A stretch of DNA of 64,000 nucleotides, taken from sequence record OL856099. One strand, written 5' to 3'. A model generated the notes under the pieces. That model made no database searches. It saw only the letters and a program-made list of their open reading frames with translations, and was not told the DNA's origin. A program made the position numbers and the translations under genes. Shown here piece by piece: positions 3,087 through 44,894 of the stretch. The stretch's first letter is position 1, and each line of letters opens with the position of its first letter. Origin of the DNA: Shigella phage CWP003.

Positions 3087-3224
3087 ATGCAAAAGATTAT
3101 TCAGTCACGTTACGTTAAAGTGCGAAATATTAATTGCAACTCTTTGCTTTCTTGGAAATGGGCTGTTTACGACTCGATGCTGATTGGCGTTTTAGTTGCT
3201 GGAGTGCTTTTTAATATTCACTGA
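3087..3224 (+). CDS. small membrane protein (45 aa)
   Basis: ATG preceded by AGAGGAAG; hydrophobic C-terminal segment MLIGVLVAGVLF; below the ORF-table size cutoff. Confidence 0.25.
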   Translation: MQKIIQSRYVKVRNINCNSLLSWKWAVYDSMLIGVLVAGVLFNIH

Positions 3225-20006: not shown

Positions 20007-22745
20007 ATGCAAAAGTTTGACACAAACCTGTTGCAAAACCTTAAGTGGATGCAGAACAACGCGCCAAACATCACATCTTTGGTTCAGAAGAAGAGTGACT
20101 GGTATGAGCGATATCAAGATCAGTTTTGGATTGACTGGTACAAGAACATATTCAACATTGATACTTGTGATGCAATGGGCATCTATATTTGGTGTGACAT
20201 CCTATGCATACCAAGGGATTTTGTTGACTTAAGCAACTATGAGCACAACTGGGCGTTTGGACCCACACGCGACAACTTCGAAGGGCCGGACAATATCGGC
20301 GGCAACTTCTTTGGTGCTGGCGGAAAGGTTGTGAAAAACATCGAAGAAGCCCGCATCCTTCTGAAGCTTCGTTATCTGACGCTTACAAGTGATGGCCGCA
20401 TAGAAAGCATCAACCGTATGCTTAAGTGGATTTTCAACCGTGGAGAAGATTGGGATTACTCTTCATCGCGCTACGCATATGTGACAGATAATACTCAAGG
20501 CGCGGTGTCTTCTTCTGAAGCAACAAACGGCTCATTCCTTCTGTACGACTGGCAGGGGTCAACTGAGATTCAGCACGATTATAAACAAGTTCTTTTGAGC
20601 CACGGCAACAACGCAGGACTTACCATAAGTGGGGTGGCAGGGACCGTTTCGCGAATGGCACACCCAGACTGGTATTCATGGGGCAATGGTTCCGGCGCTG
20701 GTATTGTCGGCGGCGATACACGACAATATGGCGGCCCTGACTATTACGGCCAACTGTGCGGTGACTACCCAGGAGAGGCCATAGAGAATTTCGCCAACGC
20801 AGTACGGGTCATCAAGACCGCTTCCAGCGGCGAGCCTGTGTATTCTTTGGCCAATAATCCAAGCGCCCAATCTATTGCGCTTCCTTCTCAGGCTGGTGTC
20901 AACGTTTGCTATAGCTTCTACATAAAAGTGCTTTCTGAAAACGTGGCTTCTGTTTCCGTAACAGAGAACAGTGATGCATCGAGTAATGGAAAACTTTTCG
21001 ACCCAGTGACTGGGCAGTTCAATCTTGACTCTTCTTTGAGTTATTTCATCACAGGCAAGTTCGACGGTGTGAGAAGGGAATCAAACCGTGGTGGCATCAA
21101 GGCAATCGGCGGCGATTGGTACAGAATCTGGATTGTAGAGCAAACTGCAAACGCTACGGCTGGGGTGAAAACAAGCTTTTCAATTGAGTTGAAAGCAACT
21201 GCCGCTGGATCAACCCAGACTCGCGAATTGCCTGAAGGGTCTGATGCGCTTCTTTTTGGATACTCCATTTGTGTTTGCGACCCTGTTCAAAATCCTAATG
21301 GGCCTGAGCCTTATTTCTATGGGACTCAAAATCCTCCTGCAGATGGAACGGCAATCCTGTCTGTTACGGCAGGAACGCTCAACAACATATCTTGCGCAAA
21401 CGGTCCGTTGACCACAAGGGATGGCGTGGTAGGTGAATCATTCATGCAGCCTGGTTCATCGCTTGCATACTCTGGTTCAATCGGCGGCTACCCGTACCCA
21501 GGAAACGCAACATTGATTGCAGAGACAGATGGAATCAGACGCTCATGGAACGTTAGCCGACTGGACGGCGTACCGCCGCCGCCGACCGCTGACTATTACA
21601 TGGAATATGTCATCGGGCCTTATTTCGCCAACAACTTATCCGACAACTTTAAGACGCTAGTTGGCGACAGGAATGAAGGATTCTTGCCAGCAAATGCCGG
21701 AATACGTTGGCAGCTTTACCAAGAAGTCGCAGACTTATCTGATATTGATTTGACCGTCAGCAACATAACAGACACGCGAGTAGGATTCGAAACGGAAGGT
21801 GTCGCATGGATTAACACTGACGGCATCATCAGAGTTGGCGGCATAAACGAGTGGCCGTTGAACAACTTCAAAGGTGTTATACGACAGCTTGAATCTTTGA
21901 AAGGTGTGAACCAAGTTATCGACGGCGCACTTGTCAACGACTATTCAATCTCAAAAGCATCAAGAGATGACTTTGGTCGTGAAATCCCACGTGCTGCGAT
22001 CACAAACTACTGGCGATACACACAGCCCAATGACGGCACATCTTTTGGAAATATCGTCAAGGACGGAGATAACACGGTAACGGCGACGCCAATCAGCGGT
22101 GTGCCCAACCAGTTCCCATCATTCAAGCTTTCCGCTACAATAGGGACTGTGCCAGCGTCCGGCTATGCACGTGCTGTACTTGCTACTAAATACACTGGCA
22201 ACCTGACTGGTCCTTTGTCATTTATCGCAATAGTTAAAAACAACACGGTAAACGGTCAAAAACTTTTCGTAACCGTACCGGATGGTATGGGCGGCTATAT
22301 CCCTAAATTCTACAGCATAGGCGCAGGTGATTTGCAACGCATCGAAATTGACCTTGCCGCTGAGATTGTTGCAGGAACGACTTGGGATGGTTCGACAGGT
22401 GGAATCAGCATTGGTTTGATATCAGGGAAAGACTTGCCGACCGAAGTCGGTACGACTCTTGAACTTGATATTTTAAGCTTGATGCTTGTTTCTGGTAATA
22501 CGATGAATGCGCTTGCGATTTCAACAAGCGAAGACTTTGCAAAGAAAACTGCAACTTCTATATACATCAAAAACCCAGGGTCACTGGCGACTGGAGTTCA
22601 ATTGATAGCTTCGAATGGGGATGTTGTAGCGACAGTAAACTTTCCAAGAAGTGCTGCTGGCGGTTATGTTTCAAGCATGAATATAACTGACTCAACTGGT
22701 GATTGGGCATCAACCCTTTTATCAAAAATTAAATACATCGTGTAG
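20007..22745 (+). CDS. large tail fibre / baseplate wedge protein
   Basis: GAGGAA RBS; 912 aa; position. Confidence 0.45.
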   Translation: MQKFDTNLLQNLKWMQNNAPNITSLVQKKSDWYERYQDQFWIDWYKNIFNIDTCDAMGIYIWCDILCIPRDFVDLSNYEHNWAFGPTRDNFEGPDNIGGNFFGAGGKVVKNIEEARILLKLRYLTLTSDGRIESINRMLKWIFNRGEDWDYSSSRYAYVTDNTQGAVSSSEATNGSFLLYDWQGSTEIQHDYKQVLLSHGNNAGLTISGVAGTVSRMAHPDWYSWGNGSGAGIVGGDTRQYGGPDYYGQLCGDYPGEAIENFANAVRVIKTASSGEPVYSLANNPSAQSIALPSQAGVNVCYSFYIKVLSENVASVSVTENSDASSNGKLFDPVTGQFNLDSSLSYFITGKFDGVRRESNRGGIKAIGGDWYRIWIVEQTANATAGVKTSFSIELKATAAGSTQTRELPEGSDALLFGYSICVCDPVQNPNGPEPYFYGTQNPPADGTAILSVTAGTLNNISCANGPLTTRDGVVGESFMQPGSSLAYSGSIGGYPYPGNATLIAETDGIRRSWNVSRLDGVPPPPTADYYMEYVIGPYFANNLSDNFKTLVGDRNEGFLPANAGIRWQLYQEVADLSDIDLTVSNITDTRVGFETEGVAWINTDGIIRVGGINEWPLNNFKGVIRQLESLKGVNQVIDGALVNDYSISKASRDDFGREIPRAAITNYWRYTQPNDGTSFGNIVKDGDNTVTATPISGVPNQFPSFKLSATIGTVPASGYARAVLATKYTGNLTGPLSFIAIVKNNTVNGQKLFVTVPDGMGGYIPKFYSIGAGDLQRIEIDLAAEIVAGTTWDGSTGGISIGLISGKDLPTEVGTTLELDILSLMLVSGNTMNALAISTSEDFAKKTATSIYIKNPGSLATGVQLIASNGDVVATVNFPRSAAGGYVSSMNITDSTGDWASTLLSKIKYIV

Positions 22746-22755
22746 AGGAACGGCA

Positions 22756-24540
22756 ATGCCAACACTTATTAACAGACCTTTCGCGCAAAGCGGTGATGTA
22801 TCCGTGGTGCCGGATGCAAGCCCAAGCGGTTACGTGAACTTCCAGCGCGGCTACACACCTGACTATGCGCTTGCCCTGGAGGCTGGAAACGTCGCCGCGA
22901 AAGCTGTTGAGCGCGAATCCATGAACTGGTTGCTGAATTTGATTACAGACAACCTTATGTTTATTCAAGATCATGGCGCTCAACAATATTTCTCTTCTGA
23001 CTTGAAGCCGGATGGATACCCGAAAAACGCCATCGTAGTAAGCAACTCTGGAACGCCTTCAGCGCCTGAGTGGCGCATCTTTCAAAGCGTGGTCGACGGC
23101 AACACAAGCGCCGTACCAGCCAACGGAGAAACGGAATCTTGGCAGGAATTAACGCTGCCCAGCGAAGCGCGAAAATACATTCCGATGCCTGCTGGCGGCG
23201 ATGCGCAAAACCCGTACTTTGTTCGTGGATTGATTTCAAGTTTTGTGGACTTCGATAATATCACGACTTCCACAACTATCGTGATTCAATCCGATTCCGT
23301 CGCCGCTCTGTGCTCTAACATCCCGAATGCGGTTGGCGCAACGAAGGTTGCAGGTCGGCTGCAGGTCTGCGCTTGGCAGGTCGATGCGCAGACCTTTGCC
23401 TTGCAGCAATATACATCAATGAATGGCTATTTGTTTACTCGCTCTTATGCTTCTGGTGCTTGGAGTGCTTGGATTCAAAATGCCACTGTTCAAGACGTGC
23501 AAATTGGAACGCCGAATCTTGCATCAGGTAAAGGAGCGCAAGACATAATCCTTACCGTCCCAGCAGGTTATTCATGGCCTCCGTCAGCAGGTAGTCGCCT
23601 GACAATCGTCAATGATGTAACGACTACCGGACCTGTCACAGTGACCATTGGTGTAAACAAAGTTGCCGTTCTTGGATTCGACGGCAGCGAGTTGCCAGCT
23701 GGCGCTATCGTAGGCCTGTTGCCATTCACCATCATCTATGACGGCACTGTTTGGCGTCTTCTTCAGGCATTCGGCGCGGCGCAAATCGGCGTTGATGCTA
23801 CGGAGCCGCAGCAGTTTGTTACCAAAAGGCAACTTGACGCGCTTGCCGCGAAGTTGATTACCATGGGCGACGTATTCGAAGTTGGTGAGACTCGATTCCT
23901 TACCAACGGTACTAACCCAAACACTAAACTGGGCGCTTACGGTCAGGTATGGACAAGGTTGCCTGATAACATGGTGATTCGCACGTCTGGCACGGCGCGA
24001 AACGGTCTTGATACAGGCGGTGCAGACTCTGTTACTCTTACCGCTGCAATGCTTCCACTCCACAATCACAGTGTGAACATTACCACGCGACAAAGTGGTC
24101 CATGGTCAAATACCACTGGAGACGCAGGCAACCATAACCATATAGGTGATACAAGCCAAAACGGTGCTCACTCTCACGGTATGGATGCGGCTGGCAACCA
24201 CCATCACGACAGTGGATGGGGCGAGGCGTTTGCCGACCAAGCTCGATACGGAGTTTATGATGGAACAAACAACAACATTGGAAGCAGAAAGACGGATTAT
24301 GATAACTACAAGTTCAACACTTCAACTAACGGCAACCATGTCCACAATATTCAATCTTCTGGTTCACACACCCATGGCTTGAATATTCAATTTTCCGGCA
24401 ATCACAGCCACAGCTATACACTTCCCGCTCACACTCACGATGTGGTCGGTAACACTGGCGATGCAGGACAGTCCGTGCCGACGGCTGTTGCTACTTTGCC
24501 GCGATACGTTGTTTTGAATGGCTGGTACAGAAGCGCATAA
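22756..24540 (+). CDS. tail fibre protein with C-terminal HxH repeats
   Basis: GAGGAA RBS before ATG 22756; C-terminus carries repeated H-x-H motifs (NHNHIG, HSHG, NHHHD, HVHN, HTHG, HSHS, HTHD) as in metal-binding fibre tips. Confidence 0.55.
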   Translation: MPTLINRPFAQSGDVSVVPDASPSGYVNFQRGYTPDYALALEAGNVAAKAVERESMNWLLNLITDNLMFIQDHGAQQYFSSDLKPDGYPKNAIVVSNSGTPSAPEWRIFQSVVDGNTSAVPANGETESWQELTLPSEARKYIPMPAGGDAQNPYFVRGLISSFVDFDNITTSTTIVIQSDSVAALCSNIPNAVGATKVAGRLQVCAWQVDAQTFALQQYTSMNGYLFTRSYASGAWSAWIQNATVQDVQIGTPNLASGKGAQDIILTVPAGYSWPPSAGSRLTIVNDVTTTGPVTVTIGVNKVAVLGFDGSELPAGAIVGLLPFTIIYDGTVWRLLQAFGAAQIGVDATEPQQFVTKRQLDALAAKLITMGDVFEVGETRFLTNGTNPNTKLGAYGQVWTRLPDNMVIRTSGTARNGLDTGGADSVTLTAAMLPLHNHSVNITTRQSGPWSNTTGDAGNHNHIGDTSQNGAHSHGMDAAGNHHHDSGWGEAFADQARYGVYDGTNNNIGSRKTDYDNYKFNTSTNGNHVHNIQSSGSHTHGLNIQFSGNHSHSYTLPAHTHDVVGNTGDAGQSVPTAVATLPRYVVLNGWYRSA

Positions 24541-24548
24541 GGTGATTT

Positions 24549-25193
24549 ATGATTAATGCAAACGTAATATCTAAAGGGACCGGATGCAGCATGGATGTTG
24601 CAGAGAAATGGGTGGACCATTTCAAGCAGGCTTGTGAGCACTACGGAATCAAAAGCAAGAATGCCATCGCGGCATTCCTTGCAAACGTAGGAGTAGAGAC
24701 GGGCAGCTTGAAGACCTTTGTGGAAAATCTCAACTACTCTGCTCAAGGTCTTGCCAATACATGGCCTAGTCGTTACAGCGTCAACGGTCGCTCTGGAAGT
24801 GCCCCGAACTCATTGGCCCTGTCGATTGCCCGTAAACCTGTGGAAATCGCCAATAATACATATGCAAACCGCATGGGCAACGGTTCAGTAGCATCTGGCG
24901 ACGGTTGGAAGTACCGTGGCCGTGGTGCCATTCAGCTGACTGGAAAGGCCAACTATGCGGAATATACGCGTCAATCAGGCTATGATGCATTGAACAATCC
25001 TGATATTCTGACTGAACCAAAATACATTGCTGACAGCGCGGCATGGTTCTTTAAGAATAGCGGCTGTATTCCTCTTGCGGATGCAGGAAATTTTGATTCA
25101 ACCGTTAAGCGGATTAACGGGGCCGCGCCGAACGCAGCAAACCACGGCGAGTTGCGAAGAAAGCGTTACAAGGATGCATTAGCAGTTATGTAA
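24549..25193 (+). CDS. endolysin, glycoside hydrolase family 19-like
   Basis: AAGGTGA RBS; motifs NVGVETGSL and YRGRGAIQLTGKANY characteristic of GH19 muramidases; no signal peptide. Confidence 0.7.
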   Translation: MINANVISKGTGCSMDVAEKWVDHFKQACEHYGIKSKNAIAAFLANVGVETGSLKTFVENLNYSAQGLANTWPSRYSVNGRSGSAPNSLALSIARKPVEIANNTYANRMGNGSVASGDGWKYRGRGAIQLTGKANYAEYTRQSGYDALNNPDILTEPKYIADSAAWFFKNSGCIPLADAGNFDSTVKRINGAAPNAANHGELRRKRYKDALAVM

Positions 25194-25196
25194 GAA

Positions 25197-25218
25197 AAAG
25201 GCCCATATGGGCCTTTGT
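25197..25218. terminator. bidirectional rho-independent terminator between convergent genes
   Basis: AAAAAGGCCCATATGGGCCTTTGTTT hairpin with flanking A/T runs. Confidence 0.5.
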
Positions 25219-25449
25219 TTATTTTACGGCTTCAACTTGGACGGGCGGAGCGGAACTTGTATCAATGTCTGGCAAGTCGAAGTAATACCCCGCCATACCA
25301 ATTGCACCCACAATCGCGGCCCGTGCCACCTTGTTGCTAATTGACTCCCCAATAAGCTTTACCAACAGGGATAAGATTTGAGACGTCAAAGCCTTTTTCA
25401 GCCTTTTGTTTTCTTCCAAATCTTTCTGCATAACTACCACCCATGTCAA
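25219..25449 (-). CDS. small membrane protein (holin or moron product candidate)
   Basis: one hydrophobic segment AAIVGAIGMAGYYF; start overlaps upstream stop. Confidence 0.4.
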   Translation of the reverse strand: MTWVVVMQKDLEENKRLKKALTSQILSLLVKLIGESISNKVARAAIVGAIGMAGYYFDLPDIDTSSAPPVQVEAVK

Positions 25450-25988
25450 CGCACTTCCTGTGTCTTAACATTACCTGAAGCATCTCTCAAGGGCAGTGGA
25501 TAGTAGGCCATTTGGTAGTCTGATACGCCTTCAATGTGATAAAACACGATTACGTCTTTGCTGTTGATGAGCATGTTAACGACATCTGATTTATCTTCTG
25601 GAGTGAGTATTAGTGCGCCGCCTGTCCTGCTGTCTACTGCAACAGGGTATGTCTTGTCGACAAGGCCGCTGTCCAATGTATTATACCTGACAACGATTTC
25701 AGGGGCATCAACTTTTGCCATTGACATTCCGAACACAAACGACACGACCTGCCGACCGCGATCATTCATTACGCACATCTTTTCTTTGTCAAATCTTTCT
25801 TTTATTACGTCGTATTTATTCCAGCAAAACTCAAATGACTGCCCATTGTTAAAATATCTTGTCAAAACTTTTGCACTTCCATTCGGCGGCGTAAACATAT
25901 TTTCAGCCGATGCAGTCTTGGTGAAGAATATAACTGTCAGCATAGCCATGATGATGATCAAAACAATCTTTAATTTGTTCGCTTTCAT
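25446..25988 (-). CDS. secreted / periplasmic protein with signal peptide
   Basis: AAAGGTGA RBS; N-terminus MKANKLKIVLIIIMAMLTVIFFTKTASA-EN is a typical Sec signal; own promoter (TTTACT-16-TATACT) upstream. Confidence 0.5.
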   Translation of the reverse strand: MKANKLKIVLIIIMAMLTVIFFTKTASAENMFTPPNGSAKVLTRYFNNGQSFEFCWNKYDVIKERFDKEKMCVMNDRGRQVVSFVFGMSMAKVDAPEIVVRYNTLDSGLVDKTYPVAVDSRTGGALILTPEDKSDVVNMLINSKDVIVFYHIEGVSDYQMAYYPLPLRDASGNVKTQEVR

Positions 25989-26070
25989 TATAATTCACCT
26001 TTTGATTATGAATATTAATAGTATAGGCTTAAGGTTTTGAAAGTAAATACGCCGAAAGTAAATAAAAGAA

Positions 26071-26092
26071 AAGCCGGAAATTTCCGGCTTTA
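26071..26092 (-). terminator. rho-independent terminator after ligase operon
   Basis: AAAGCCGGAAATTTCCGGCTTT hairpin followed on the minus strand by a T-run. Confidence 0.45.
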
Positions 26093-26163
26093 TGTATACA
26101 CTGTATATTAAATTCTAGAAAACGGCGCGATAGATTATACGCAACAATTATTTATCCAGTGTG

Positions 26164-27138
26164 TTAAAAATACTCCATATCGGTAATATCACGGAAGCAC
26201 TTATACAAGGCAGAGCGCGGCACGTCAACTATGCCAAAGTTAAAGAATTTATATGTCAAATACTTGTTTCGATAATTCTCGCGATTCTCCCAAAGCATTT
26301 TTCTCTCTGCCATAGGCATTGAACCAGCGGAGACGCGGAAGGGAATCATTTCACCTTTCTCATCAACATATTTTGGATTGACAACCACAAATGATCCAAG
26401 GTATCCTTTTGCAACTAAGCCTTCAGCCTCTTTCGAACGCTTAGTGCGACCCAACTCATCAATGAATGCTTCGTTGTTATTCTCCATCATCTCAACGAAG
26501 TCTATGATCAGTCCTTCTTCATCGGTCCACGGCTTGTCCTTCCACACATCACGTGACTTTGGCGTCGCGCGGCCATGCTTGTATTTGCCCGTCCAAGACT
26601 TGCCATACAAGCCTTCATAGCCAAGCTGGTCTGCTTCGATTTGCATCGCCGCGTACTGTTCCATATTTTCGATGTTTCGATATTCGAGAGCGCGAAGGAA
26701 TGGGCGTCGACCATGGTTGATGAGGTGCTGATTGACTTCAGCAACTCTAGCGCGATAGTTTGCATAACGCTTTTCAAAAGGCAAATCAGGGTCGCTGAAG
26801 TCATCAAACACCCACCATGTAAAGTTAGTGATTGCATCAGTGTTCATGCATGCAGTATAGGCCTGTTGCATGACGTTCTTGTCATTCGGATTACCGTCAA
26901 TTAGCTCTCCATCAAGTCCGTGAATCAATTCACCCAAGAATAGGAACTCTTTTTTGATTTGAATGTTGCGCAGTGCCATGCCGGATGTGCCCATTGGCAA
27001 GTTGTCATACGCCATCGCGCGTATTCCATCGACCTTGAAGGATAATCCGCAAGGCAGCGGCACATCTTCGCCGCGCTCGATGATTTGTTTACGCTGGCAA
27101 CCTTTCATTGGTTTTAATGCTTTGATTTCTCCTGCCAT
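26164..27138 (-). CDS. ATP-dependent DNA ligase
   Basis: AAGGAG RBS before second ATG; nucleotidyltransferase motif I SFKVDGIRAM; DGELI and EGLVAK motifs. Confidence 0.6.
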   Translation of the reverse strand: MAGEIKALKPMKGCQRKQIIERGEDVPLPCGLSFKVDGIRAMAYDNLPMGTSGMALRNIQIKKEFLFLGELIHGLDGELIDGNPNDKNVMQQAYTACMNTDAITNFTWWVFDDFSDPDLPFEKRYANYRARVAEVNQHLINHGRRPFLRALEYRNIENMEQYAAMQIEADQLGYEGLYGKSWTGKYKHGRATPKSRDVWKDKPWTDEEGLIIDFVEMMENNNEAFIDELGRTKRSKEAEGLVAKGYLGSFVVVNPKYVDEKGEMIPFRVSAGSMPMAERKMLWENRENYRNKYLTYKFFNFGIVDVPRSALYKCFRDITDMEYF

Positions 27139-27731
27139 CACTCAAACTCCTTATTCATCACTTGTTCCAGCGCATAGGCATAAGCCTGATCAGTCGATTT
27201 AATAAACGTTCCGTTGTACATCACACCTTTACGGTCCTTGATGTCTTCATAGGCGGCTTGAGCGCAATCAGACAGTCGAAGTCCATAATCATGCGCTACG
27301 CCGGAAAGATAATCGACTGCGGCCATGATAGTGACATCAATATCCATGCTTTGATTTTTAGCAATGGCGTCACCAAGCCGTCCGAGAGTCTTCGCCAAGC
27401 GAAGGATAAAGGAATGAGGGTGAGCGCCTTTGTCAGCGCAACCGCCTCCGTTGATGTCTTCGATTTTTGCACCATTTTGCGCGGCAAGAATAGTTAACAC
27501 AACAAGGCAATCACCGATGTCGTCCTTGATTGCGGCTTGCAAATCACAAATGGCCTGCTCTGTATATCCGATTTCAGGGTCAAAGAACACAAGGTCATGG
27601 AGTTGATCCACGTGGTCGGTCAACTCCCCAAACTCGCTAATAAGCTTCGGGTATTGGTCTTTAAGGCCGCAACCTTTGATGATGTTACGGTCAGAAGCCC
27701 ATTGGCGAATGTTTGCATAAATCTGGTTCAT
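27138..27731 (-). CDS. MazG-like nucleoside triphosphate pyrophosphohydrolase
   Basis: KLISEFGEL and IGDCLVVL segments fit the MazG EExxE-type helical fold. Confidence 0.5.
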   Translation of the reverse strand: MNQIYANIRQWASDRNIIKGCGLKDQYPKLISEFGELTDHVDQLHDLVFFDPEIGYTEQAICDLQAAIKDDIGDCLVVLTILAAQNGAKIEDINGGGCADKGAHPHSFILRLAKTLGRLGDAIAKNQSMDIDVTIMAAVDYLSGVAHDYGLRLSDCAQAAYEDIKDRKGVMYNGTFIKSTDQAYAYALEQVMNKEFE

Positions 27732-28246
27732 TTATTTTCCTTTGATGCGTTGAATTGGTCGATTTTAATTTTAGCCTGATTATAAGTATCAATCAAGCTA
27801 TTAACTTTCTCTTTTAATCGGTTCGTTTCTGCGGCGAACTGAACAAGAAATCGGACATCCTCTTCTGATAGTCCACAGTTTCCTTCTGGGATAGAGAGGC
27901 GTCCAGTGGTCGCAGAGTAGGGCACACTCCTGAGTAATTCACGGGAACAGCTGAGTTGCTCGCGCAGCTTGATATTCCCAGACTTGTAACGAGCAATAGT
28001 GTCATCAGCAACCAGTTGCGCTTCCTGGCGACCCTTCTCATATGCCGATGCCGATTCAACCTGTAAAGATGCAATTTGCTCTTCGAGTGCATTTATCTTG
28101 TCCTTACGCTCATTAAGCGATGTCAGATATTGATTGTCCTTGGCCAGTGATGCGTTGGTTTGCTGAAGGTCTTCAACGTATGATCCAGCGGCGAACGCGC
28201 CAACAAGGGCCAGAATCTTCAGTAGCGGTACAATTCTTTCTATCAT
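27728..28246 (-). CDS. Rz: i-spanin (Rz-like)
   Basis: N-terminal transmembrane segment, coiled-coil periplasmic region, conserved Cys residues; lipoprotein ORF embedded in +1 frame. Confidence 0.55.
   Translation of the reverse strand: MIERIVPLLKILALVGAFAAGSYVEDLQQTNASLAKDNQYLTSLNERKDKINALEEQIASLQVESASAYEKGRQEAQLVADDTIARYKSGNIKLREQLSCSRELLRSVPYSATTGRLSIPEGNCGLSEEDVRFLVQFAAETNRLKEKVNSLIDTYNQAKIKIDQFNASKENK
27814..28041 (-). CDS. Rz1: o-spanin (Rz1-like lipoprotein) embedded within the Rz frame
   Basis: MRRVARKRNWLLMTLLLVTSLGISS-C lipoprotein signal with lipobox; wholly inside 27728-28246 in a different frame. Confidence 0.5.
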   Translation of the reverse strand: MRRVARKRNWLLMTLLLVTSLGISSCASNSAVPVNYSGVCPTLRPLDASLSQKETVDYQKRMSDFLFSSPQKRTD

Positions 28247-38615: not shown

Positions 38616-39062
38616 TTAACGGTAATTCACTAGTTGCTGATCACCAGAGAAGGTGCAATGATAAACGAATTGTGCGTTATAAAGCAACTGAAAACTTTTC
38701 TTTGGTTCATTATTAGAACTCATTGATGTAAAGATTTCTGCACCAGAACGGTTTTCACCAATCAGATTGATAAAGCCGCCAGTTGAACGAGGTTGAACGA
38801 AAGTGAAACGTTGCATCCACGGAGTCCGGTTGACACCTTTTCCGGTGAATCCTTGAATCTGAATATTCAGACCTTCTTGCTCATTCACACCGATGTAAGT
38901 GGTAATCTTCGCACCAGTCGTTGCTGCGGTCTTACCGTCCATCGCTTCGCAATCGTAAACAGCGATTGAATCGGAAGTACGGATGGCGGCTTCAGTCGCT
39001 TCCATATACATGGTGCCGAGAATAGCAGTTGCGGCAAGCGCGATTCCAGTGATTCGTTTCAT
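38616..39062 (-). CDS. secreted small protein with signal peptide
   Basis: AGAGGA RBS; MKRITGIALAATAILGTMYMEATEA signal-like N-terminus; two Cys. Confidence 0.5.
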   Translation of the reverse strand: MKRITGIALAATAILGTMYMEATEAAIRTSDSIAVYDCEAMDGKTAATTGAKITTYIGVNEQEGLNIQIQGFTGKGVNRTPWMQRFTFVQPRSTGGFINLIGENRSGAEIFTSMSSNNEPKKSFQLLYNAQFVYHCTFSGDQQLVNYR

Positions 39063-44789: not shown

Positions 44790-44894
44790 ATGAAAGCCGT
44801 AAAGAAATACACATTAATCATTTCCCTTGTAATCATCCTGGGGCTATTATATGTATTGGATATGGCATATTATTTGGCAGGGGTGAGTAAATGA
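44790..44894 (+). CDS. small hydrophobic membrane peptide (34 aa)
   Basis: MKAVKKYTLIISLVIILGLLYVLDMAYYLAGVSK; stop overlaps next start (ATGA); not in ORF table. Confidence 0.3.
   Translation: MKAVKKYTLIISLVIILGLLYVLDMAYYLAGVSK

Follow-up and report, generated by a model that had tools for sequence, protein, structure and literature searches.

Which function is served by two leftward genes that lie between the endolysin and the DNA ligase of a virulent phage and appear to have a transcription unit of their own? The pair occupies positions 25,219-25,988 (minus strand) of a 64,000-nucleotide stretch of Shigella phage CWP003 (record OL856099), the whole of which is called the window here, and the initial annotation of this DNA took it for a self-contained moron with a host-interaction function or a lysis regulator. 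The reading that we prefer, at a probability of roughly 45%, is that the genes, one for a secreted protein of 180 amino acids (aa) and one for a small protein of 70 aa, form a conserved, separately transcribed envelope module of the PB1-like myoviruses that acts with the lysis system. Region 24500-27200 of the window is 100% identical to Escherichia phage vB_EcoM_WFH, Wifcevirus WFH (MK373776, NC_048194, OZ035737), and 90-99% identical to 25 other Wifcevirus records; the copies of genes and proteins in the window are therefore named WFH below. The Wifceviruses are a virulent group of PB1-like myoviruses with genomes of about 68 kb (PMC6753283). The elements of the cassette, with the evidence for each, are as follows; L017 denotes a metagenomic relative.

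25197-25216, both strands: bidirectional intrinsic terminator between the cassette and the late structural-endolysin operon (folding energy, z-score, annotation in relatives)
25219-25431, minus: small gene, 70 aa from ATG (phrog_5165, alignment, dN/dS)
25219-25449, minus: small gene with the alternative TTG start, 76 aa (list of open reading frames)
25446-25988, minus: 180-aa gene with a predicted Sec-secreted periplasmic product (orthologue vBEco4M7_66 / Mansfield_054)
25997-26002, minus: Shine-Dalgarno sequence AAGGTG of the 180-aa gene (invariant in Wifceviruses and L017)
26020-26047, minus: predicted sigma-70-like promoter TTTACT-16-TATACT (9/12 consensus, conservation)
26070-26091, minus: intrinsic terminator of the ligase/MazG/spanin transcript, upstream of the cassette (energy, z-score, conserved stem)

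Both minus-strand open reading frames (ORFs) proposed at the outset are present, and both genes are real and under purifying selection. The ratio of nonsynonymous to synonymous substitution rates (dN/dS) was 0.03 for the small gene and 0.08-0.13 for the 180-aa gene, levels like those of neighbours such as the endolysin gene (0.05-0.09). The 76-aa length first given to the second product holds as a reading frame from a TTG (25449) that overlaps the stop codon of the 180-aa gene, whereas the GenBank records all annotate 70 aa from ATG 25431; each of these starts has a usable Shine-Dalgarno sequence. With the ATG start the two WFH genes are 14 nt apart. In L017 an ATG stands at the upstream, TTG-equivalent position, and the stop of the 180-aa-type gene overlaps the start of the small gene.

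The position of the small gene is one reason to associate the pair with lysis. We compared the loci of Mansfield, WFC, TH32, Bas101, vB_Eco4M-7, Kyle, PA1, MTx, MyoSmar, Carpasina, PB1, 14-1 and the metagenomic relatives L016, L017 and L023. The order in all relatives examined is ligase, optional small ORF(s), the secreted protein where it occurs, small protein, bidirectional terminator, convergent endolysin and tail fibre. All 28 Wifcevirus records contain the pair, and its gene order is retained in Kylevirus, Myosmarvirus, Carpasinavirus and metagenomic relatives. Small gene and endolysin converge on a common terminator in these four genera, in Pbunavirus and in two metagenomic lineages. This convergence in all related genera, even where the endolysin family has been swapped, argues for a function together with the lysis system. 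The swap was seen in L017, where a 150-aa phrog_90 endolysin (L017:5803-6255, minus strand) replaces the glycoside hydrolase family 19 (GH19) enzyme at a fixed slot. The tight linkage of the two genes points in the same direction for the secreted protein, since the 180-aa-type gene, where present, always immediately precedes the small one. PB1, 14-1 and L023 lack the 180-aa-type gene, a presence/absence pattern that runs only between genera. The small gene has no such pattern: it keeps one fixed locus in at least 5 genera and stands alone in Pbunavirus and in L023, the one new lineage recovered by scanning IMG/VR with the small-protein alignment, which is without the 180-aa gene.

The small protein matches phrog_5165 (hmmscan, E 1.7e-7), and PB1 gp49/ORF47 matches the same PHROG (E 1.4e-54). 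Searching with tblastn from the WFH protein recovered Kyle (44% identity, 1e-10), PA1 (52% over residues 2-53, 3e-4), Serratia phages and, weakly, Xanthomonas/Xylella phages, while 331 records were found from PB1 gp49, that is about 300 Pbunavirus together with Escherichia, Serratia, Pantoea and Erwinia phages. No match was obtained in Pfam, NCBIfam or the functionally annotated PHROGs, hence to no described holin family. Members of the family share the invariant core L...GE[ST][IV]K..R, in which L15, G28, E29 and R37 do not vary, and the protein is laid out as a basic N-terminal part, the core, a 14-residue uncharged stretch rich in Ala, Gly and Ser, and an acidic Pro-rich tail. The single hydrophobic segment noticed initially thus corresponds to a real uncharged stretch, but it was overstated, as its hydrophobicity is marginal: the Kyte-Doolittle(19) maximum is 1.23, and a crude Hessa sum over 17 residues gives +4.5 kcal/mol, compared with +2.4 for the transmembrane domain (TMD) of the i-spanin and -2.8 for the signal peptide of the 180-aa protein. 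Throughout the family the N-terminal part carries a charge of +1 to +9 and the C-terminal tail of 0 to -3. This asymmetry fits an N-in/C-out topology and adds to the case for a lysis function, and a tail-anchored or interfacial helix in that orientation would be the most economical reading of the small protein.

Experimental data on an orthologue point to the membrane as well. Tian et al. 2024 looked for a holin in Pantoea phage PA1, found none and tested the neighbours of its endolysin (PMC11538084). Their lysis-related protein (PA1-LRP, ORF13) is the orthologue of the WFH small protein, as the primers of that paper encode MVRRR... and ...QKVEQQK, just as the PA1 ORF does. The two proteins share, besides the 52% identity, the GE[ST][IV]K..R core, the position convergent to the endolysin and an upstream 180-aa-type gene (ORF14); they differ in that the N-terminus is less basic in WFH and in that toxicity and endolysin enhancement are reported for PA1-LRP only. 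Expressed alone, PA1-LRP reduced the growth of E. coli, killed about 25% of cells and lowered the density of the cytoplasm in transmission electron microscopy (PMC11538084). When PA1-LRP was fused to the endolysin, growth loss was stronger, beta-galactosidase readings rose and the cells changed in morphology, and the killing was also obtained when just the hydrophobic peptide was fused to the endolysin (PMC11538084). Toxicity and enhanced endolysin killing are a further reason for the lysis reading, although membrane damage and enhanced killing are attributed to the WFH protein by analogy with its orthologue. The PA1 data show membrane activity and are weak as a holin test; the study used a fusion with the endolysin rather than separate proteins and drew no link to Pbunavirus. 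Among the functions that the initial annotation had offered, the lysis regulator is the one closest to these results (PMC11538084).

The same features of the small protein could be read otherwise. Perhaps the two genes share a transcript and have unrelated functions, the small protein being a cytoplasmic helical-hairpin regulator at the middle-to-late switch, whose basic N-terminus would bind nucleic acid or a host protein, and the 180-aa gene a lineage-specific inserted accessory. Arg and Lys are indeed frequent at the N-terminus in PB1, PA1 and Kyle, two charged residues of the supposedly hydrophobic region (E29 and R37) never vary, hydrophobicity is marginal, and the small gene, alone in Pbunavirus and L023, sits at the end of the replication block, while the 180-aa gene is slightly low in GC content (0.418) and found only in some genera. 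A purely cytoplasmic regulator is difficult to reconcile with the lowered cytoplasmic density caused by PA1-LRP, the beta-galactosidase raised by the endolysin fusion and the killing by the peptide fusion. Moreover, an acidic Pro-rich C-terminal tail combined with a basic N-terminal part is a typical membrane-topology signature, and no DNA-binding or regulator family was matched. We consider this explanation quite improbable.

The product of the 180-aa gene appears to be destined for the periplasm. The Sec signal ascribed to it at the outset is well supported by an n-h-c pattern, MKANKLK / IVLIIIMAMLTVIFF / TKTASA followed by EN, with a 15-residue hydrophobic core, so that the predicted signal comprises residues 1-28. 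Nearly all aligned homologues retain a small-x-small (AxA-type) site behind the hydrophobic core (ARA, AVA, ADA, AYA), and because it is followed by this conserved cleavage site, the hydrophobic segment is best taken as a signal peptide and not as an anchor. A T4-T-like class III holin, with a short N-in segment, one TMD and a periplasmic disulfide domain, was considered for the 180-aa protein and ruled out by the conserved AxA site. The two Cys that had been counted are exactly two, C55 and C72, invariant in 9 diverse sequences, and from its sequence the pair is compatible with a periplasmic disulfide.

This secreted family is very small, comprising Wifcevirus, Kylevirus, Myosmarvirus and a few metagenomic contigs: a profile search against 1.8 billion representatives gave 5 matches and a word-indexed search gave 11. 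The WFH protein and that of Serratia phage MTx align end to end at 21% identity, and no match was found in Pfam, NCBIfam, the functionally labelled PHROGs or the sequences of the PDB. An AlphaFold2 (AF2) model from 6 near-identical sequences reached a predicted local distance difference test score (pLDDT) of 45; with the alignment rebuilt to include distant Serratia-type homologues from the profile search, the model had a pLDDT of 90.3 and a predicted template modelling score (pTM) of 0.84, with ten strands and one long helix. Fold prediction, which had been named as a check on the initial annotation, thus yields a confident model of a periplasmic-type beta-sandwich with a mature part of 152 aa. 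According to this model the product is a secreted periplasmic beta-sandwich and plausibly a protein-binding module. The conserved signal peptide and Cys pair, together with this model, are among the grounds for the lysis-associated envelope module.

Foldseek against the PDB returned only meaningless TEAD matches (TM-score below 0.32), and against viral models (BFVD) it returned the MTx homologue, a 253-aa Carpasina protein of the same locus (E 2e-3) and uncharacterised proteins of the T4-like phages RB16 and KP15. Putative fold neighbours of the model are IalB and MotY-like periplasmic interaction modules. Any likeness to the IalB family (PF06776/COG5342; Bartonella IalB structure 3DTD) would be one of fold only, at 7% sequence identity, and PF06776 was not recovered in the 180-aa protein (0 families in a Pfam scan at E<=1). 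Proteins with an IalB domain are exported to the envelope; one of them, RgsG of S. meliloti, is periplasmic, essential and linked to Tol-Pal. None of the structure matches had the fold of the lysozyme inhibitors (Ivy, PliC/MliC, PliI, PliG), of Sp, of RI or of lipoprotein-exclusion proteins. As for the KP15 analogue (BFVD entry D5JF58), its probable gene, matched by length only, is KP15_10 of Klebsiella phage KP15 (L026:8763-9359, minus strand, 198 aa), which lies in an early region between the topoisomerase and dexA genes and whose product combines a membrane anchor at the N-terminus with a coiled linker and a periplasmic part that is rich in beta structure and contains two Cys. Aligned by hhalign, the WFH 180-aa family and KP15_10 gave no sequence signal (probability 0.1).

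Two envelope-directed products raise the question of superinfection exclusion. According to this explanation, the pair would be an exclusion or envelope-remodelling module expressed early by the host polymerase from a sigma-70-type promoter, and its products would block DNA entry or the tail lysozyme of later phages, or mask or modify an envelope component, in analogy to T4 Sp and Imm or P1 Sim. The own host-type promoter and the terminator insulation would suit such a role, as would the structural analogues in RB16 and KP15, with the probable KP15 gene in an early region and encoding an N-anchored periplasmic protein with two Cys, and the periplasmic interaction modules (IalB, MotY-like) among the putative fold neighbours. 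Neither product has been seen in virions, either: mass spectrometry (MS) of vB_Eco4M-7 and ECML-117 preparations detected two neighbouring gene products and not those of the pair (PMC7048862). Within the limits of that dataset, this spares the pair the outcome that the initial annotation had set against its own proposal, namely that the products are virion structural components, and it is equally one of our reasons for the lysis reading. Genes for exclusion tend to vary, but the small gene hardly does (dN/dS 0.03) and is common to phages of Pseudomonas, Xanthomonas, Serratia, Pantoea and Escherichia with different receptors. No sequence or fold similarity to the Sp, Imm, Sim, Cor, Llp or lysozyme-inhibitor families was found, and the toxicity and lysis enhancement of PA1-LRP point elsewhere. 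Exclusion seems to us unlikely.

The claim of an independently transcribed cassette has fared well, as the unit looks autonomous, with terminator, promoter and terminator all conserved and an orthologous unit mapped experimentally. Both bracketing terminators are strong hairpins followed by T-runs. The upstream one (26091-26070, minus strand) has a folding energy of -13.6 kcal/mol (z -4.6), is annotated in the Mansfield, WFH and WFC records, and keeps its stem with an altered loop in TH32 and L017. The one on the endolysin side (25197-25216) has -13.2 and -14.3 kcal/mol on the two strands (z -3.7 and -4.0), and the same bidirectional arrangement is annotated in PB1, 14-1, MTx, MyoSmar and Mansfield. 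The proposed TTTACT-16-TATACT promoter, a 9/12 consensus match predicted in WFH, is supported by conservation; a consensus match alone is not significant, given that this AT-rich DNA has many of them and a sigma-70 scan of 5.5 kb found 12 sites against 6.9 +/- 2.6 in shuffled sequences. The predicted start site lies near 26013, which leaves a 5' untranslated region of about 25 nt. In five Wifceviruses the spacer between the ligase and the 180-aa gene is 95% conserved with invariant promoter hexamers. In L017, whose 180-aa-type protein is 63% identical to that of WFH, the spacer has diverged and the conserved islands are the terminator stem with its T-run, the TATTTAC repeat with the -35 hexamer, the TATACT -10 hexamer and the ribosome-binding site. 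It is this footprint, rather than the consensus score, that makes the transcription signals credible. An Rfam scan of the spacer and terminators had no hit at the gathering score.

Two further sequence patterns were noticed in this spacer. An 11-nt direct repeat, TATTTACTTTC, occurs at 26064-26054 and 26049-26039, its copies 15 nt apart and the second containing the -35 hexamer; L017, too, retains TATTTAC as the core of the two copies. A palindrome, TATACAGTGTATA, is found at 26095-26107 (minus strand), just upstream of the terminator stem. Judged by sequence, the repeat and the palindrome are possible regulator-binding sites.

The orthologous unit is that of Pbunavirus 14-1, in which gp48 forms the monocistronic unit TU021 with its own transcription start site (TSS) and transcription termination site (TTS) mapped by ONT-cappable-seq (Putzeys et al. 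2024, PMC10914365). We checked that gp48 is ORF47, a phrog_5165 member between ligase and endolysin, and it therefore supports by orthology an own transcription unit for the WFH genes, for which an independent transcript remains an analogy. PB1 gp49 and 14-1 gp48 resemble the WFH small gene in family, in the ligase/convergent-endolysin locus and in the bidirectional terminator. They differ in being without the 180-aa periplasmic gene and in a longer charged C-terminal tail; moreover, TSS and TTS are experimental in 14-1, whereas the promoter is predicted only in WFH. In Pbunavirus, a spacer of 280 nt separates the ligase from gp48/gp49 (14-1, L015:3086-3364, minus strand; PB1, L007:11943-12221). 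It is without an ORF and has, about 75 nt before the start codon, a TATAAT that agrees with the private TSS published for TU021; no full sigma-70 match came out of the consensus scan. Kyle has the pair immediately after the ligase, with gaps of 18 nt that leave no room there for a private promoter or terminator, and the annotation of MTx and MyoSmar shows no terminator ahead of the pair. These arrangements indicate that terminator-promoter insulation is a Wifcevirus feature common to Pbunavirus and is not inherent to the gene pair.

Is the cassette then a moron? Like the classical morons of HK97/lambda-type phages, reportedly described by Juhala et al. in 2000, it is a unit of promoter, gene(s) and terminator set between functional modules, with its own, predicted, promoter and terminator. 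Unlike them, it is neither variable among close relatives nor compositionally distinct, it is not in a temperate phage, and its small gene belongs to the core genes of the entire PB1-like supergroup. The GC content is 0.46 in the small gene and 0.463 in the window, and the GC profile is without a sharp break except at the AT-rich spacer. The authors of the 14-1 transcriptome do call gp48 'moron-like', its GC being 51% against 56% for the genome (PMC10914365). That label and the autonomous promoter/terminator architecture would favour a true moron, a recently acquired, dispensable niche module for virulence or receptor modification. Yet the pair is universal in the genus, the small gene occurs at one locus in 331 records and at least 5 genera, selection is strongly purifying, the small gene has no GC anomaly in WFH, and the phage is virulent, which makes prophage expression impossible. 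Kyle, moreover, carries the pair without signals of its own. We give a recent acquisition hardly any credence; the moron claim of the initial annotation is not sustained, and the distribution data argue against the label for 14-1 gp48 too.

A module acting with the lysis system must be set against what else the genome offers for the membrane step. No holin is annotated in any Wifcevirus record, the curated Mansfield genome included, and a hydropathy scan of the coding strands of the window found no small multi-TMD protein; both speak for the small protein as a lysis factor. The neighbours of the cassette that matter here are the following.

22699-24540, plus: tail fibre gene, preceding the endolysin
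24549-25193, plus: GH19 endolysin without a signal or signal-arrest-release (SAR) domain (Pfam Glyco_hydro_19, phrog_181; context, outside the cassette)
26164-27141, minus: DNA ligase (local gene order)
27138-27731, minus: MazG (local gene order)
27728-28246, minus: i-spanin (local gene order)
27814-28092, minus: o-spanin, embedded in the i-spanin gene (local gene order)

The i-spanin/o-spanin pair lies inside the replication operon, upstream of MazG and ligase and distant from the endolysin. Terminator-segmented units are the general layout of this operon, as the leftward Wifcevirus gene block is cut by several terminators, and the cassette is the end of the replication (early/middle) block. 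Elsewhere in the window we noted a 45-aa one-TMD ORF in the head module (3087-3224, plus; it matches Mansfield_027), a 34-aa one-TMD ORF in the primase region (44790-44894, plus) and a 148-aa protein with an N-terminal hydrophobic segment (38616-39062, minus) between thymidylate synthase and a UDP-galactopyranose-mutase-like gene.

Several points weigh against an action of the pair with the lysis system. Just outside the window, WFH_00016 is a rival holin candidate of 71 aa with two strong TMDs and an acidic C-terminal end, and in PB1, Kyle, PA1 and MTx a 201-aa three-TMD phrog_1544 protein is a further candidate. The cassette, for its part, closes the replication block, has a host-type promoter and stands outside the late operon. 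The adjacency to the endolysin does not amount to many independent observations, because it is synteny inherited in one phage supergroup, and gene order is the sole link of the 180-aa protein to lysis. The 14-residue stretch is less hydrophobic than the i-spanin TMD and has an invariant Glu and Arg nearby. As to PA1, a generic exogenous TMD-endolysin fusion was nearly as effective as that of PA1-LRP (about 61% versus 69% loss of optical density), and a two-hybrid assay showed no contact between PA1-LRP and endolysin (PMC11538084). These experiments, which used a fusion protein and readouts at 6-24 h, are weak for a holin function.

The two competing candidates merit some description. WFH_00016 (MK373776 9030-9245; L010:4031-4246, minus strand) is annotated as hypothetical, is 94-100% conserved in 28/28 Wifcevirus records and, from its sequence, looks like a class-II-type holin candidate that competes for the holin role. 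The phrog_1544 protein occupies the Wifcevirus spanin slot in the genera that have it and shows a sub-threshold similarity to GTA_holin_3TM; lysis genes seem to have been exchanged between genera at this slot. The 201-aa three-TMD protein of PA1 gave no help when fused to the endolysin (PMC11538084). With these candidates present, the small protein is one of several for the membrane step.

If the pair does act with the lysis system, it may do so as follows. The small protein, weakly hydrophobic and probably tail-anchored in the inner membrane, would have its basic N-terminal part in the cytoplasm, its Ala/Gly-rich helix in or on the membrane and its acidic tail in the periplasm. It would perturb the inner membrane so that the signal-less GH19 endolysin reaches the cell wall, being thus holin-like or an accessory of a holin. 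The 180-aa protein would be exported by Sec, cleaved after ASA and disulfide-bonded, and may, as a periplasmic accessory or regulator, act on the small protein or on the breakdown of the envelope; it would be dispensable in lineages without its gene (Pbunavirus, L023). We infer, on these lines, that the two products may interact and may have a role in the timing of lysis. The model for such a regulator is the T4 pair of holin T and periplasmic antiholin RI, which resembles the present one in joining a membrane lysis protein that has a periplasmic portion with a secreted phage-encoded partner. In its boldest form, the idea would make the LRP-family protein the missing inner-membrane lysis effector of PB1-like phages, the Pbunaviruses used in therapy among them, as a new tail-anchored type of holin of weak hydrophobicity, and the IalB-like beta-sandwich its periplasmic antiholin or sensor in the enterobacterial and Xanthomonas lineages, hence a T/RI-like pair of unrelated folds that times lysis from its own transcription unit; we hold this version to be decidedly doubtful. 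Beyond the lysis-associated module and the three alternatives weighed above, the remaining probability belongs to something else.

Pbunaviruses are among the most used Pseudomonas therapy phages, and Wifceviruses are very fast-lysing. For the PB1-like group no route has been established by which a signal-less endolysin passes the inner membrane, and annotated holins are either missing or unverified. No paper was found that brings together the PA1-LRP family, 14-1 gp48 and the partner gene. Two papers have touched on the family to which the small gene adds a new member, and its secreted partner is uncharacterised. The finding is useful but incremental, since its functional claim rests on weak published experiments and synteny. 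Even so, the 'lysis-related protein' of PA1, the 'moron-like' single-gene transcript of 14-1 and the WFH cassette come together as one conserved family at one conserved locus, in which the small gene is partnered in four genera with a secreted beta-sandwich protein. With the moron label corrected, this provides a concrete gene pair for working out lysis or exclusion in PB1-like phages.

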